From contig CAZQLN010000003.1 of NCBI GenBank assembly GCA_964594215.1, forward strand, positions 91,447-150,496: 59,050 nucleotides of DNA, written 5' to 3'. Below the pieces are notes generated by a model, which saw nothing but the letters and a program-made list of their open reading frames with translations, was not told where the DNA came from and made no database searches. This DNA is from an uncultured Bdellovibrionales bacterium. Its GTDB lineage: Bacteria > Patescibacteriota > Minisyncoccia > Moranbacterales > UBA1568. This document shows positions 39,923 through 59,050 of the stretch, piece after piece; position 1 is the first letter of the stretch, and each line of letters starts with the position of its first letter. The translations under genes and the position numbers were made by a program.

Positions 39923-40831
39923 TTAAAACCATTTTTTGTAACGAAAGATTACCGTCGTGATAAGAGCGATAACCAGCATGATACCAGCATGGATCCAAAA
40001 AGCATGTGGATTTCTGCCAAAAGGAATACTGGCGCTTATGGCTAGCATACTGGAGTACGCGCTCATCGGCAACATGATGGCCGAAAAGATAGTCAAAACC
40101 TTCATGGTCATGTTGAGTTTATTAGAAAGAAGTGAATTATTGGTGGCTTCAAGGGCTTCAATAGTCTCTTTTTGACTCTCTAAGATATTCCACAAACGGA
40201 TATTGGTACCAATCAAATCCTGAAAATAGACCTTCATATCACTCGGTATATACGGGTAGTCTTTCTGAACTAGAGATTCGATGATAGAGCGCTGTGGTTT
40301 GAGGGTGCGACGGAAATTTAGAATATCTCGTTTCAAGACGGAAATTTCTCGTACCATTTCTTTTTCATTATCGGCAAAGACCTGACTCTCGATATAATCA
40401 AGGCGTTCCGCAGTATGCCGTAGTTTAGGGAAGCAGGATTTAAGTAAAGTTTCAATCACCTGATACATGAGGTGGGCTGGTGTTTCCTCAAGATGGAGAC
40501 GACGCTTACCTTCGCTGTTTGTCAAAGAATCATGGAAACTATGAATCTGATAAATAGGATGCTTATGGCTGGTAATCAAGTGAGTTTTGGTGAGAATAAT
40601 ATCTAACTCACCAGAAAAAGTGGCTCGTTCTTTGGTATCGAAGAGAGGAATATGAATAGAAAGAAAAAGACAGTTTTCATACTGAACTACCTTTGGCTGA
40701 TACGTCGGGGTGATGAGTTCCTCGATAGCCAAGGGGTGGATATTGAAATTTTCTTGTAAATAGGTGATATCTTCCTGGCCGATATCAAGAAAATCAAGCC
40801 AAGCGATGTTTTTATGAGCAACGGTCTTCAT
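39923..40831 (-). CDS. CorA-family divalent cation transporter-like protein lacking the GMN motif
   Basis: CorA-like length and architecture: an N-terminal soluble domain and two C-terminal TM helices. YSSM/LAIS occupies the place of YGMN in LPMSAYSSMLAISASIPFG. Confidence 0.6.
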   Translation of the reverse strand: MKTVAHKNIAWLDFLDIGQEDITYLQENFNIHPLAIEELITPTYQPKVVQYENCLFLSIHIPLFDTKERATFSGELDIILTKTHLITSHKHPIYQIHSFHDSLTNSEGKRRLHLEETPAHLMYQVIETLLKSCFPKLRHTAERLDYIESQVFADNEKEMVREISVLKRDILNFRRTLKPQRSIIESLVQKDYPYIPSDMKVYFQDLIGTNIRLWNILESQKETIEALEATNNSLLSNKLNMTMKVLTIFSAIMLPMSAYSSMLAISASIPFGRNPHAFWIHAGIMLVIALITTVIFRYKKWF

Positions 40832-40915: not shown

Positions 40916-41191
40916 TTGACAAAGGCCAAAAAATGGGGTTATGCTGTAGCGGTGATACGAAAAAGCCTTCTTTTTATCATCACTTTGTATCAGAGGACCA
41001 TTTCGCCCGATCATGGTTTCTTGAAGCGTTTTTTCCCTCTGGGAACCTGTCGCTTTTATCCGTCCTGTAGCGCCTATATGTATGAAGCCATTGAAACTCA
41101 TGGCATGATACATGGAGGGGCTCTGGGACTTCGTCGAATTCTTCGTTGTCATCCTTGGCACGTTGGAGGACACGATCCCGTACCGAAATAG
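40916..41191 (+). CDS. yidD: membrane protein insertion efficiency factor YidD
   Basis: YQRTISP...[19 protein letters not shown]...[15 protein letters not shown]. The start is uncertain (TTG at 40916 or GTG at 40952). Confidence 0.85.
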
Positions 41192-41226
41192 TCATTTTGA
41201 CAATTGAATATCAGAGGGGTAAATCC

Positions 41227-41430
41227 ATGTATCGAATGTTACGAATGGGTTTAGTTTATGCTGCAGTTAGCTTTGGATTCGCAGCAGTAGCTAGCCCAGC
41301 TTCTGTTATTCTTCCACCAAAAGAGAGACCCTATAAGGTGTCTCGAAAAAAGAGTGGGAAAATTAATGGAAAAAAGAAATATTCACAGAAGGTGAGGAGT
41401 GGTCGTCGCAAGGCAAAAGCAAAACACTAA
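41227..41430 (+). CDS. small secreted polycationic peptide (orphan A)
   Basis: SD GAGGGG 8 nt upstream. Signal-peptide-like N-terminus ending AAVA-SPAS. The tail has about 17 K/R residues in 45 aa. Confidence 0.5.
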   Translation: MYRMLRMGLVYAAVSFGFAAVASPASVILPPKERPYKVSRKKSGKINGKKKYSQKVRSGRRKAKAKH

Positions 41431-41446
41431 CCCGAAAGGGGGTTTT

Positions 41447-41656
41447 ATGCCACCGCATGATTTTCAACACAATCAACGCCTTGTTCGGCATGATGCTGAT
41501 TTTGTAGAAAGAGTCCTCGACTCTTATCCGGAATACAGCCATGTGCCAGGCATGCATCATCTGACTACTCGACTGATGAGTAATCGCGATCGCCGTAGTG
41601 GGTATGGTGATAGTCGGCTCAAGCAGAAGAGGTCTCAGGAAAATAAAGGGGAATAA
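41447..41656 (+). CDS. small His/Arg-rich orphan protein (orphan B)
   Basis: SD AAGGGGG 4-5 nt upstream of the ATG. 69 codons, ending in TAA in the same frame as orphan C. Confidence 0.45.
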   Translation: MPPHDFQHNQRLVRHDADFVERVLDSYPEYSHVPGMHHLTTRLMSNRDRRSGYGDSRLKQKRSQENKGE

Positions 41657-41659
41657 AAT

Positions 41660-41863
41660 TTGGCTCTCTACGATCCACAAGGAACTCATTACCAAGCAAA
41701 GGAACTTATCTTTTGTGAGGTTGCAGAGAAGATGATGATGAGCAGTGCCGCTCGGGAAGCCTATCATCCTACCAAGGGTGTAGGGCCGCCCGGCTACCAA
41801 CCTCCGGTTGTTCGACCGGAAAATACAGTAACCTGTATGGCATGTAAAAACTGCCACCCATAG
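41660..41863 (+). CDS. small Cys-motif orphan protein (orphan C; C-terminal RPEN-x3-CxxCxxC)
   Basis: TTG start with AAAGGGGA upstream; an alternative ATG cluster lies at 41731. The C-terminus is RPENTVTCMACKNCHP. Confidence 0.45.
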   Translation: MALYDPQGTHYQAKELIFCEVAEKMMMSSAAREAYHPTKGVGPPGYQPPVVRPENTVTCMACKNCHP

Positions 41864-41874
41864 GAGTTTTTCCA

Positions 41875-42087
41875 ATGTTTCATTCTGCCATCTATATACC
41901 TGATACGGCGCTCGCTGTCCCAGAAGGATGCGTTCGTTGTTTAGCTTCAGGTGGGGAGATATTACCACTTGAAACTGCCTTCGAGAAAGTCCTCGCTGGT
42001 GATGCTGGCAATGCCATTACGCTGTGCAGGCAACTTTGTGCAACGCCATGCTCACCAGATATCAAGCTCGATGAATTTTTACTTTGA
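41875..42087 (+). CDS. small Cys-rich orphan protein (orphan D; CxxC plus Cx3Cx3C)
   Basis: SD TAGGAG 9 nt upstream. Contains CVRC ... CRQLCATPC. Confidence 0.45.
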   Translation: MFHSAIYIPDTALAVPEGCVRCLASGGEILPLETAFEKVLAGDAGNAITLCRQLCATPCSPDIKLDEFLL

Positions 42088-42107
42088 GAATCAACAAGGA
42101 GGGTACT

Positions 42108-42374
42108 ATGAACAACGCAGGCTTTTTGGGTGAATCTGTCATGTTTGACCTTGACTCTGACAAAAGACGCGGTTGTCAGAGAAGGTTGCCTCATGAGCCA
42201 GTCTATTGTGCGGTTGCCGGAATTGAAGTCACCGTAGCCACTGCACGGATGCAGTACCACTATCGCGGGGGGAAACTCACAGGGGACGTGCCTGTCACTA
42301 ATCCCCGACACACAGCACCTACACGACCAGAAAATCGCGCCCAGTGCTCTTCCTGTGGAAACTGTACTGATTGA
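42108..42374 (+). CDS. small Cys-motif orphan protein (orphan E; C-terminal RPEN-x3-CxxCxxC)
   Basis: SD AAGGAGGG 6 nt upstream. The C-terminus RPENRAQCSSCGNCTD is paralogous to that of orphan C. Confidence 0.5.
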   Translation: MNNAGFLGESVMFDLDSDKRRGCQRRLPHEPVYCAVAGIEVTVATARMQYHYRGGKLTGDVPVTNPRHTAPTRPENRAQCSSCGNCTD

Positions 42375-42396
42375 AAATGACGCAACGCGTCGCCTA

Positions 42397-42430
42397 AAAG
42401 GGTCTTCTTCGGAAGGCCCTTTTACCTTTT
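42397..42430 (+). terminator. rho-independent terminator of the five-ORF operon
   Basis: AAAGGGTCTTC-TTCG-GAAGGCCCTTT (11 bp, one G-U pair), followed by a T-rich tail. Confidence 0.65.
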
Positions 42431-42454
42431 TATAGAGCTATTTTTATACCATAC

Positions 42455-42481
42455 TTAGCACTCTACTTGACAGACTGCTAA
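42455..42481 (+). promoter_or_regulatory. CIRCE operator (HrcA binding site)
   Basis: TTAGCACTC-N9-GACTGCTAA, versus the consensus TTAGCACTC-N9-GAGTGCTAA (one mismatch). Confidence 0.8.
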
Positions 42482-42495
42482 TCACTATTTATACT
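42467..42495 (+). promoter_or_regulatory. sigma70-like promoter of the hrcA operon, overlapping CIRCE
   Basis: TTGACA (42467-72, inside the CIRCE spacer), 17-nt spacer, TATACT (42490-95). Confidence 0.6.
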
Positions 42496-43294: not shown

Positions 43295-43828
43295 ATGCCC
43301 AGAAAGAAACCTACACAAACTGAACCCGCCTCTCATGAAAATGAGAAACCTCTTGAGGTAAGTAAAGAAGAGGAATACCTAAACGACCTCAAGCGCCTGC
43401 AAGCTGATTTTGATAACTATAAGAAGCGTCAAGCTGAAGCAGAGAAATCACTTAAAGGCTATCTCATCGAAGGTTTAGTACTTGATCTCATTCCCGTTCT
43501 GGACAACTTCCATGCTGCCACCATGCATGTACCCGAAGATCAAAAATCAAGCCCTTGGGTAGTGGGGATCCAGTACATAGAGAAACAGCTCGAGACCGTA
43601 CTCACTGAAAATGGTGTAACTATGATTGAACCGACAGTGGGGGAAACATTCGATCCAAAGTTCCATGAGGCTATCGAAAGTATCTCTGGAGAACCAACCA
43701 ATAGTATCTATAAAGTTTTACAAAAGGGCTATCAAATAGGTGAGCGAGTAGTTAGACCAAGCAAAGTAGCCATCTATACTACCCATGAAGCACCTATTCA
43801 AACTGAGAAAGGGGGTGAGAATTCATGA
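43295..43828 (+). CDS. grpE: nucleotide exchange factor GrpE
   Basis: LKRLQADFDNYKKR and FDPKFHEAI. Confidence 0.9.
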   Translation: MPRKKPTQTEPASHENEKPLEVSKEEEYLNDLKRLQADFDNYKKRQAEAEKSLKGYLIEGLVLDLIPVLDNFHAATMHVPEDQKSSPWVVGIQYIEKQLETVLTENGVTMIEPTVGETFDPKFHEAIESISGEPTNSIYKVLQKGYQIGERVVRPSKVAIYTTHEAPIQTEKGGENS

Positions 43829-44241
43829 ATCGTTCACTAATATCCTTTCCATTTAACGACATTGAGCGCTTTTGGGGAGATGATTTCTTCGGTGGAGTAG
43901 CAGAACTCTCTCCGAAGATGGATGTCTACCAAAAAGAAGACTCTGTCATGGTGGAATTACCTCTTCCCGGAATTGACCCAAAAGATGTAAAAATTGTTGT
44001 TGAAAATGATGTTCTTACAGTTAGTGGTCAAACCGAGGAAAAAAAGGAGGTAAAGCGCGAAGATTACTATCGCAAAGAGACTCGCTCAGGCCATTTCACA
44101 CGATCAGTAGTGCTCCCAATGCCAGTGAAAAATGCTGAAGCTCAAGCTCGTTACGATAAGGGAATCCTCACTATTGAGCTCCCAAAAGACGAACAAGCTA
44201 AACCAAAACAAATTGCGATTGAAATCGCAAGTGAGAAGTAA
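43825..44241 (+). CDS. Hsp20/alpha-crystallin small heat shock protein
   Basis: PKMDVYQKEDSVMVELPLPG..KDVKI.VENDVLTVSG and GILTIELPK. 4-nt overlap with grpE. Confidence 0.88.
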   Translation: MNRSLISFPFNDIERFWGDDFFGGVAELSPKMDVYQKEDSVMVELPLPGIDPKDVKIVVENDVLTVSGQTEEKKEVKREDYYRKETRSGHFTRSVVLPMPVKNAEAQARYDKGILTIELPKDEQAKPKQIAIEIASEK

Positions 44242-46308: not shown

Positions 46309-46608
46309 ATGGAATCATCTCAAAACAATCAGACTCAGCCACAGATCAAAGCCAACGATGAAATCTTGAAAGGGGAGTATGCGAACGCTATGCAGGTGAT
46401 GCATACTAAGGAAGAATTTGTCATGGACTTTATATCCAACCTGCCACCGATTGCCAGTCTTGTCAGTCGCGTGATTATCTCTCCTGGTCAGATGAAACTG
46501 ATTGCCAAAGCTCTTAATGAAAATATCAAAAAATACGAAGAGCAATTCGGCTCTGTCACGCCATCCGAAGAACCCAAAAACACCATTGGCTTTCAAGCAG
46601 GGGAATAA
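46309..46608 (+). CDS. DUF3467-like small protein
   Basis: YANAMQVMHTKEEFVMDF ... ISP pattern typical of DUF3467. Confidence 0.55.
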   Translation: MESSQNNQTQPQIKANDEILKGEYANAMQVMHTKEEFVMDFISNLPPIASLVSRVIISPGQMKLIAKALNENIKKYEEQFGSVTPSEEPKNTIGFQAGE

Positions 46609-54881: not shown

Positions 54882-54954
54882 GCCAAGATAGCTCAGTTGG
54901 CAGAGCGCCGCACTCGTAACGCGGAGGTCCCGAGTTCGATCCTCGGTCTTGGCT
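54882..54954 (+). tRNA. tRNA-Thr (anticodon CGT)
   Basis: Hand-folded cloverleaf. Acceptor GCCAAGA/TCTTGGC, D arm GCTC/GAGC, anticodon loop CTCGTAA, T arm CCGAG-TTCGATC-CTCGG. One A31-C39 mismatch. No encoded CCA. Confidence 0.85.
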
Positions 54955-57906: not shown

Positions 57907-57935
57907 TTGCATTTAGTCAAAAAGTATGATATAAT
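57907..57935 (+). promoter_or_regulatory. strong sigma70-like promoter with extended -10
   Basis: TTGCAT (57907-12), 17-nt spacer, TGaTATAAT (57927-35). Confidence 0.55.
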
Positions 57936-57973
57936 GGACATGTAAGGGTAAAACTCTTATACAGGAGGGAACA

Positions 57974-58111
57974 ATGCGTGCACAAAATCTTGCCGCAGAA
58001 AACAAAAATAACCTTGTCGGACCTCCGTGGTCCAGCGCAAGGCAAAATCTATTTTGCTTTTGTTTGGTTGGAAGCTTCGGGATAGCATTATTTGCTAGTT
58101 TTCCCTGGTAG
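57974..58111 (+). CDS. 45-aa small protein with hydrophobic C-terminus (below the ORF-track cutoff)
   Basis: SD AGGAGGG 4 nt upstream. MRAQNLAAENKNNLVGPPWSSARQNLFCFCLVGSFGIALFASFPW. Has its own promoter and terminator. Confidence 0.4.
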   Translation: MRAQNLAAENKNNLVGPPWSSARQNLFCFCLVGSFGIALFASFPW

Positions 58112-58137
58112 CCTTCTGCCAGCCTTACCTGAAAATG

Positions 58138-58166
58138 GGCTCGTCCTCTTGTGGCGGGCCTTTTTC
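58138..58166 (+). terminator. rho-independent terminator
   Basis: GGCTCGTC/GGCGGGCC (8 bp, two G-U pairs) followed by TTTTT. Confidence 0.55.
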
Positions 58167-58172
58167 CTTGTC

Positions 58173-58200
58173 TTGAAATTTATCGTCAGTTCTGTATACT
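58173..58200 (+). promoter_or_regulatory. candidate promoter of tRNA-Gln
   Basis: TTGAAA-16 nt-TATACT, ending 14 nt before the tRNA. Confidence 0.45.
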
Positions 58201-58202
58201 AT

Positions 58203-59050
58203 TCAGGTATCTTTTGGGGAGTAGCCAAGCGGTAAGGCAATAGGTTCTGGTCCTATGATGCGGGGGTTCGAATCCCTCCTCCCCAACCAATTATCATTTT
58301 CTTGATATGCAAGCACCCCTTGGAAGGGTGTTTTCGCTTCATAGAGCAGTTTTTCACCCCTCAATTGCAAGTTCTGAAGTATGAAGTTGATAATGCTCGT
58401 TTTTTCGGGCACTTCAGAACTTTCAAACAGATCAAAGGCTCTTGAAGCAACATCCAATATCTTACCCGCTGTTATATAGAAGCTATTATCACCCTTGGAG
58501 TGCTCTTCAAGTTCTATCACTAGTTTTTCACGGTCTACCCCTAATTCTTTCACAAAAGCATCATATTCATCCGTGCTAATTCTTCCATCCAAACGGTCTT
58601 CATACATTAGCCTGAGACGCTTTGAAATAGCCTCCAAACGGCCTTGAATACGGTTAAGGTTCTGTTGATAGTAGCTTTGCTCATTTTCGTGCAAGAGACG
58701 CAATCTTTCTTTCAACTTGGCCATTTCCTCATCTGAGGGCCGAAGTCGTCCCAAAACCCCCATAATTTGCTCCACAATGCGCTCTTCTTTGACCCAAGCT
58801 TTATTGGTGCAGGTCTTATGATAGTTGGTGCAGTGATAGTAAACATAGCGTCCTTTTTTGAGCTCTGGAGTAAAGAGACACTCGCATTCAGGGCAGGTGA
58901 TGAGACCACGAAAAATAAAAGGCTTATCAACTCTCTTGAAAGGTTTCTTATCATAGCTTTCTCTCACTTCTTGCACCTGATTGTAAAGGTAGAGTGAAAT
59001 CAAAGGCTCATAGCGATGCTGAAAGAGCTTCTCTTTATAATCCATTTGCC
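58203..59050 (-). mobile_element. large serine recombinase gene, 5'-truncated by the window end (recombinase domain end, Zn ribbon, coiled coil)
   Basis: HRYEPLIS.YLYNQVQ (end of the recombinase domain), zinc ribbon CPECECLF...YYHCTNY, and a long coiled-coil region. The frame stays open to nt 59050. The last 29 or so codons are antisense to tRNA-Gln. Confidence 0.75.
58215..58289 (+). tRNA. tRNA-Gln (anticodon CTG), CCA encoded
   Basis: TGGGGAG..GCCAAGCGGTAAGGC..ATAGG-TTCTGGT-CCTAT..GGGGG-TTCGAAT-CCCTC-CTCCCCA-A-CCA. Closely parallels E. coli tRNA-Gln. Confidence 0.9.

Follow-up and report, generated by a model that had tools for sequence, protein, structure and literature searches.

A native small-gene block beside the hrcA operon of Moranbacteria encodes tandem four-cysteine paralogs that probably bind a metal centre

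Ligand sets for [4Fe-4S] clusters in which three cysteines are close together and one is remote are known from the N-terminus of FNR, the cluster loop of endonuclease III and the ferredoxins, and the usual zinc sites are made up of two knuckles, CxxC plus CxxC. Four invariant cysteines also mark the small, cytoplasmic WhiB-like (Wbl) proteins. Here we describe a block of five small genes, O1 to O5, two of which encode Cys-free or hydrophobic products and three of which (O3, O4 and O5) encode proteins with four conserved cysteines. The block lies in a stretch of 59,050 nucleotides (nt) of contig CAZQLN010000003.1 (assembly GCA_964594215.1), hereafter the window, to which all unlabelled coordinates refer; it is part of a Candidatus Moraniibacteriota (Patescibacteria) genome and occurs in wastewater and activated-sludge metagenomes. 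On balance we favour, with moderate confidence, the view that the block belongs to a native yidD-led unit of + strand genes and that O3 to O5 are putative metal-binding four-cysteine paralogs with a role as adaptors or regulators. The elements of the unit are as follows.

40916..41191, + strand: yidD, membrane protein insertion efficiency factor (Pfam PF01809, 96 bits)
41227-41430, + strand: O1, 67 amino acids (aa), with a hydrophobic N-terminal segment and a polycationic tail
41447-41656, + strand: O2, 69 aa, basic, His/Arg-rich and Cys-free
41660-41863, + strand: O3, 67 aa, TTG start, four-Cys family, type A
41875-42087, + strand: O4, 70 aa, four-Cys family, type B
42108-42374, + strand: O5, 88 aa, four-Cys family, type A
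42395..42434, + strand: Rho-independent terminator closing the yidD/small-gene unit (stem 42395-42424, 13 pairs, TTCG loop, T-tail)

The genes run in the order corA (- strand), yidD, O1-O5 (+ strand), terminator, CIRCE (controlling inverted repeat of chaperone expression)/promoter, hrcA, grpE, hsp20, dnaK and a DUF3467 gene. The five open reading frames (ORFs) are separated by gaps of 16, 3, 11 and 20 nt, and a purine-rich Shine-Dalgarno (SD) site stands 4-9 nt 5' of each start (GAGGGG, AAGGGGG, AAAGGGGA, TAGGAG and AAGGAGGG for O1 to O5, respectively). The coordinates, spacer lengths and SD sites given in the first-pass annotation of this DNA were all correct, and the hairpin with a T-tail that it placed at the end of the block is present. 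A scan from yidD to O5 detected no terminator apart from a weak 6-pair site within O2. Because no terminator lies between yidD and O5, an operon led by yidD as its first gene probably ends in the small-gene block, which would then not be an insert between two units; the block had been described as an operon between yidD and CIRCE/hrcA, and the compact + strand set is borne out but its status as a separate insert is not. In related loci, which were fetched through HrcA, the arrangement recurs: most Moranbacteria loci have yidD 5' of the small genes, and in most loci a terminator hairpin whose sequence varies closes the array ahead of CIRCE (the terminator position is kept by a sequence-different hairpin in L011, L012, L014, L015, L016, L018, L056 and L065). 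We conclude that the small-gene unit is separated by its own terminator from the CIRCE-controlled hrcA-grpE-hsp20-dnaK operon. Public gene calls for the contig omit yidD and O3 (L001 8809-9081 and 9553-9753), both of which start with TTG, and at one locus O2 is lengthened to 85 aa by the choice of a GTG start; the small-gene locus is under-called in automated annotation, and standard callers miss the family or call it in part.

Mapping to metatranscriptomes, which had been proposed as a check, recovered unstranded and shallow contigs, 100% identical to the window, from four sludge metatranscriptomes; O5 was covered in three runs and O2 and O4 in one run each, and hsp20 was also represented. 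The four runs had been chosen for containing the block, and for this reason an enrichment of RNA contigs on it (5 of the 15 pieces in the 59-kb window) was discounted. In a fairer control with queries of equal length, five metatranscriptomic runs were counted for the block and one each for a dnaK segment and an alaS segment. The block region is transcribed, at a level and from a strand that the contigs do not resolve.

The five products were screened, together with two long antisense ORFs described below, against Pfam, NCBIfam, PADLOC and PHROGs with nothing significant found, and sequence and profile searches of the PDB gave only sub-threshold matches to eL40 and WhiB, in agreement with the first-pass annotation, which had recognised none of the products. 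A search of the literature on cysteine-rich proteins of Patescibacteria (the candidate phyla radiation, CPR), or on yidD with hrcA, found nothing relevant. The products had also been taken for five orphans, and this does not hold: sequence comparison shows O3, O4 and O5 to be tandem paralogs of one lineage-restricted, fast-evolving family of 60-90 residues, with the pattern hydrophobic-C-x(20-45)-C-x2-3-C-x2-5-C. Among 43 aligned members the four Cys are the only invariant columns. When a hidden Markov model (HMM) from which the sequences of the window and of L011 had been left out was scored on 619 six-frame ORFs of the window, the three best were O5 (5e-6), O3 (7e-5) and O4 (3e-3). The next score, 0.095, belonged to an ORF at 57913-58179 on the - strand, which was rejected as a family member.

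It can be seen from pairwise comparison that O3 and O5 (phmmer, 4e-5 to 8e-5) form one subtype, sharing YH.R..., RPEN and C-x2-C-x-N-C. O3 is a duplicate of the O5 lineage that shares RPEN-x3-C-x2-C-x-N-C and is absent from L065. O4 represents a second subtype, with EAF..(V/I)LGGDA.NAI.LC and the Cys spacing C-x28-C-x3-C-x3-C; it is the fastest-evolving copy, and type-B relatives occur in L011-L014, L065 and L066. The cysteines of O5 are C34...C80-x2-C83-x2-C86, and in the alignment of its subfamily (A7) His51, Arg53 and Asn76 are invariant as well. Across the family the N-terminus is the variable part, and the central strand-helix and the C-terminal Cys core are conserved. Many members carry a recurring [FLY]LPG[FLI] or DFLPDH in their variable N-terminal extensions (L012 5326-5607; L013 5138-5425 and 5453-5710; L014 14-304 and 277-603; L015 5088-5300), and O5, which begins MNNAGFLGES (42108-42140), was listed with these cases; the recurring motif may be a short linear docking motif.

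The family keeps one chromosomal position. The gap between yidD and hrcA spans 0.4-1.4 kb in related loci and contains between one and four small + strand ORFs with the family pattern, and the Cys motif was present in 54 of 220 gap ORFs on the + strand and 6 of 160 on the - strand. Scored on the six-frame ORFs of 53 hrcA loci, 6,539 in all, the full HMM gave 50 matches, every one of them on the + strand and no more than 1.7 kb upstream of hrcA; the positive loci were 25 of 44 from Moranbacteria and none of nine from other Patescibacteria. When 1.84 billion representative proteins were searched exhaustively with a profile, 13 true clusters emerged, all of 59-145 aa, and no fusion to a known domain was seen among them. 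Word-indexed searches for homologs gave no more than 10 proteins, none of them named, and a single-protein scan of metagenomes two loci; in homolog searching the full-length profile (A2) was poorer than the domain profile (A1). We conclude that the family is inherited vertically at a fixed position, with turnover in copy number. One cluster, P0013 (145 aa), is a head-to-tail fusion of two domains, the first resembling the 'CARSG..PIEIS' genes of L013-L015 and the second O5, showing that a single chain can be produced from adjacent paralogs, by fusion or by read-through.

With no signal peptide detected, O3-O5 would be cytoplasmic proteins, and on this presumption the four cysteines may be ligands of one metal centre. 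They have a 1+3 layout, in which one Cys lies in a predicted beta-hairpin and is followed by a short helix, a variable loop and C-x2-3-C-x2-5-C near the C-terminus; both AlphaFold2 models, of O4 (from a 12-sequence alignment) and O5 (from an 8-sequence alignment), have the first Cys where a beta-strand of a hairpin ends, with a helix after the hairpin. Judged from these patterns, O3-O5 probably bind a metal centre, either Fe-S or Zn. We favour a cubane Fe-S cluster because three close and one remote Cys is its typical pattern, with Zn(Cys)4 as the main alternative. By analogy with Wbl proteins, O3-O5 might act as small metal- or redox-dependent adaptors or regulators, and their rapid divergence and copy-number turnover suggest such a role rather than that of an enzyme or electron carrier. 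The earlier description of the products as small metal-binding or redox proteins is thus plausible for the Cys-rich O3-O5.

Several points weigh against the adaptor or regulator reading of a native, yidD-led unit. The spacing of the last two cysteines ranges from x2 to x5, which suits Zn as well as Fe-S. Likeness to WhiB is under every significance threshold: an hhalign comparison of family alignment A6 with an alignment of WhiB1, WhiB and WhiB3 gave a probability of 9.8% over 20 columns. Adjacency is all that ties the proteins to the heat-shock operon or to any partner, and co-transcription with yidD is read solely from spacing and the missing intervening terminator. The RNA contigs are unstranded, assembled and of low depth, and DNA carry-over is possible. 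Finally, the AlphaFold2 models of O4 and O5 are of low confidence (predicted local distance difference test, pLDDT, 47 and 54) and Foldseek of the models against the PDB found nothing below E 2.5, so that both the fold and the clustering of the cysteines stay at the level of models.

A potential explanation for the four cysteines that would not need to invoke redox or Fe-S chemistry is a purely structural Zn(Cys)4 site, which would make O3-O5 zinc-stabilised modules for binding protein or nucleic acid. A zinc site is most commonly signalled by four invariant Cys in a small protein, the best profile match in the PDB, although non-significant (E 0.08), is to the zinc protein eL40, and a C3-C4 spacing of x2 to x5 is tolerated by zinc sites. 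However, the 1+3 layout, which packs three Cys into 6-9 residues, does not resemble the two-knuckle CxxC + CxxC sites and differs from the 2+2 arrangement of zinc ribbons and treble clefs, and no Pfam zinc-finger family was matched. The low-confidence models, with a best Foldseek E of 2.5, are too uncertain a basis for comparing folds with known zinc fingers. We consider a structural zinc site possible, and give it a real but minor share of our belief.

Preferring putative metal-binding adaptors or regulators of native origin, we also considered whether the family could be the Patescibacteria counterpart of the Wbl proteins, convergent or extremely diverged, that is, tandem [4Fe-4S] sensors of O2, NO or redox state that dock on RNA polymerase or another core machine in hosts with very few regulators of the conventional kind. 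We regard this as unlikely. Membership of the WhiB-like family (PF02467) was rejected on sub-threshold scores, and the likeness was kept as an analogy: O3-O5 have no match to Pfam Whib, for which E values of 0.066-0.095 were seen, among them 0.095 in one of 45 members, and the score was 14 bits in two of about 48 members, P0005, a minimal member of 58 aa, reaching 14.2 bits against a cut-off of 23.6 bits. In the profile search of the PDB all four Cys align with WhiB4 at E 0.39, which is a lead only.

It is more doubtful still that O3-O5 are multi-copy precursors of a Cys-modified ribosomally synthesised and post-translationally modified peptide (RiPP), such as a ranthipeptide or sactipeptide, or of a bacteriocin. 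Such precursors would, in outline, also be small, fast-evolving and Cys-rich at the C-terminus, and occur as variable copies in tandem. On the other hand, the Pfam context within 10 kb on either side of the block (L001) contains no gene for a radical-SAM enzyme, cyclase, peptidase or transporter, the content being alaS, rplU, recR, dnaB, cysS, corA, hrcA, grpE, hsp20, dnaK, DUF3467, GNAT and NUDIX only; this upholds the first-pass view that no enzyme partner is nearby. The yidD-hrcA region of related loci likewise contains small ORFs only, and the cluster has no maturase, protease or transporter. There is no double-glycine leader, and in place of a conserved leader with a variable core the conservation is inverted, with a variable N-terminus and a conserved mid-helix and Cys core.

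The block had been thought to be horizontally acquired, and we put the probability that it is an acquired island at very little. Its GC content is raised (47.6% against 43.1 +/- 2.0% in windows of the same size, the top 1.3%), an excess that is real but mild, and homologs are confined to a narrow clade, both of which could be read as signs of foreign origin. The earlier expectation of a compositional anomaly therefore stands as far as GC goes, but a foreign signature does not emerge: the excess is at codon position 2 (0.46-0.53 in the block and 0.32-0.39 in neighbouring genes), because Cys, Gly, Ala, Pro and Arg are frequent among the encoded residues, and the GC content of third positions (GC3) is normal at 0.29-0.47 against 0.35-0.43. 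No mobility genes or flanking repeats were seen at the block, and PADLOC, PHROGs and two viral-contig scans gave no defence or phage matches. The family stands at the same position, 5' of hrcA, in the 25 positive Moranbacteria loci, and the locus is conserved across the clade. Among the closest relatives, and as the first-pass annotation had suggested looking for, synteny is kept: L066 (HrcA 99% identical) carries all five ORFs, L011 (HrcA 92%) carries O2-O5, and L065 (HrcA 81%), which is without O1 and O3, carries O2, a gene resembling O4, a shortened one resembling O5 and one extra paralog. We conclude that the small-gene block is native to the Moranbacteria genome, the position of the locus being decisive.

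All five small genes were compared in these relatives for selection on the encoded products. Substitutions concentrate at third positions of the + strand frames in every pairwise comparison, and the ratio of non-synonymous to synonymous substitution rates (dN/dS, by the Nei-Gojobori method, four species pairs) was 0.29 for O1, 0.10-0.16 for O2, 0.09-0.15 for O3, 0.21-0.26 for O4 and 0.04-0.13 for O5, which resembles that of yidD (0.13-0.18). Between the window and L066, where dN/dS across the five + strand frames is 0.09-0.29, the synonymous excess per site was significant in all five (Fisher p 0.005 to 3e-11), and the starts and stops of the + strand frames are conserved in two to four species. 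O1-O5 are all protein-coding on the + strand and under purifying selection, so the earlier proposal that the products are real holds up in related genomes. Two long frames lie on the opposite strand.

41363..41968, - strand: antisense frame of 201 codons, not a gene (antisense dN/dS 0.9-1.4 opposite O2 and O3)
41892..42311, - strand: antisense frame of 139 codons, not a gene (antisense dN/dS 2.3 opposite O5)

Both exist as first described, but they are non-coding shadows and no evidence of a foreign composition: opposite O2 and O3 the substitutions sit on + strand third positions, and opposite O5 the frame has three stops in L011. That the small ORFs are spurious and the antisense frames the real genes, or that the ORFs are pieces of one decayed gene, can be set aside with next to no reservation, in spite of the unusual length of the antisense frames and the lack of database annotation for every + strand product, given the antisense dN/dS of 0.9-2.3 and the stops in L011, the constrained + strand frames, and the exhaustive profile search, in which only small proteins and no larger parent were found.

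The comparison with L066 also shows a mosaic of divergence (window 41831-42330, L066 2740-3220). Synonymous divergence (dS) is 0.12-0.14 in yidD and O2, 0.46 in hrcA and 0.96-1.2 in O4, O5 and grpE, and nucleotide identity drops from 97% to 50-60% across the N-terminus of O4, which suggests recombination between lineages or a hypervariable segment.

O1 and O2 stand apart from the four-Cys family. O1 has an isoelectric point (pI) of 11.5 and an N-terminal hydrophobic segment that is signal-peptide-like or membrane-associated. An intact ortholog of 67 codons, 78% identical, is present in L066, and for this pair the Fisher test gave p 0.0018 at the dN/dS stated above; single-nucleotide polymorphisms within the species from four DNA runs were too few to bear on the gene. 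O1 was found only in the window and L066. It is a young gene, because an insertion of about 165 nt in the window supplies most of its ORF and L011 and L065 lack it, their spacer between yidD and O2 measuring about 95 nt. In L018 (5510-5680) a 56-aa ORF between two family genes of this distant relative has an O1-like hydrophobic head and polycationic tail. A search for further O1-like ORFs in the gaps of other species found one per strand and hence no evidence for a class, and the likeness in architecture between the L018 ORF and O1 may be coincidence.

O2 (pI 9.3) matched no family in Pfam or NCBIfam and is kept only in the four closest species, with orthologs 97%, 79% and 75% identical in L066, L065 and L011, respectively. 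Its leader, which is conserved in three species, may fold.

41412..41451, + strand: O2-leader RNA structure pairing the SD and AUG region (RNAalifold, three species; 10 pairs, -7.2 kcal/mol)

In the predicted structure GGCA pairs with UGCC across the AUG and an inner CCC-GAAA-GGG hairpin covers the SD, with approximate counterparts at L011 4901-4940 and L065 2890-2929. A translational switch or an RNA thermometer beside the heat-shock operon is a speculative reading of this weak energy and of three sequences.

The surroundings of the block include the following two features.

39923-40831, - strand: corA, upstream neighbour of yidD
42455..42495, + strand: CIRCE operator overlapping the hrcA promoter (CIRCE 42455-42481, 1 mismatch, the sole CIRCE match in the window)

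The hrcA promoter, TTGACA-17-TATACT, is near-consensus, with its -35 box inside the 9-nt CIRCE spacer, and this arrangement is conserved in relatives. The 40-nt stretch 42455-42495 is matched by contigs of many other organisms in the same samples, and depth spikes of up to 112x were seen there with loose ends on both sides. Further downstream, hsp20 (43825-44241) lies between grpE and dnaK and overlaps the end of grpE by 4 nt; in L066 (4185-6261) there is no gene call between grpE and dnaK, only a spacer of about 70 nt. A DUF3467 gene (46309-46608), and no dnaJ, is found 3' of dnaK. The only Rfam matches in the window are tRNA genes at 54882-54954 and 58215-58286, both on the + strand. HrcA proteins 65-92% identical to that of the window are encoded in many assemblies titled 'uncultured Bdellovibrionales bacterium' (L011, L014, L015, L018-L020, L022-L026, L028-L032, L034, L036 and others), most of which have yidD upstream. 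The Bdellovibrionales label of these assemblies looks wrong, because records titled Moraniibacteriota match at a similar level.

The genomes of Patescibacteria are small, with few recognisable regulators and many unannotated small genes, and the family provides a selectively maintained, transcribed and testable small-protein case that had not been described before. Throughout a class-level lineage the family has stayed at a single chromosomal address, with yidD on one side and the heat-shock operon of HrcA on the other, despite fast turnover of sequence and copy number. Should the proteins carry Fe-S or Zn and bind a core machine, this uncultivated lineage would have minimal sensors or adaptors of a new class; otherwise the family would still illustrate cleanly how micro-proteins evolve by birth and death, with O1, born from the insertion described above, as one case.

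How the family compares with described systems can be summarised as follows. With SCIFF and ranthipeptide precursors it shares short length, a Cys-rich C-terminus and the possibility of multiple copies, but those precursors have an adjoining radical-SAM maturase and the opposite pattern of conservation. Both eL40 and the family are small Cys4 proteins, and the profile match runs over 'a.kY.....vC..C.ar'; however, only two of the four Cys are aligned, and eL40 is a ribosomal protein of eukaryotes and archaea. The ligand sets of FNR, endonuclease III and the ferredoxins share three close and one distant Cys, often then followed by Pro, but there is no sequence likeness past the motif, and both FNR and endonuclease III are far larger than the family proteins; as regards the Fer4 clan, Fer4_6 gave E 0.92 in one of 45 members and no Cys-Pro follows CxxCxxC. 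Compared with Wbl proteins, all aligned family members lack the G[VI]WGG turn and the basic C-terminal tail, most ending 1-15 residues past the last Cys, and a beta-hairpin is predicted at the first Cys where Wbl proteins are all-helical. The window copies have CxxCxxC or Cx3Cx3C (X2 in O3 and O5, X3/X3 in O4) and not the CxxCx5C of Wbl, whereas a deep-branching subgroup (P0004-P0008, L018, L022, L024, L029 and others) has the X5 spacing, C-x24-27-C-x2-C-P-x4-C beside the Wbl C-xn-C-x2-C-x5-C. What the two families have in common is a small (about 60-130 aa) and presumably cytoplasmic protein with four invariant Cys in the same order and at similar spacing, present as several paralogs per genome and restricted to one lineage, which is the Patescibacteria for the family described here and the Actinobacteria, with their phages, for Wbl.

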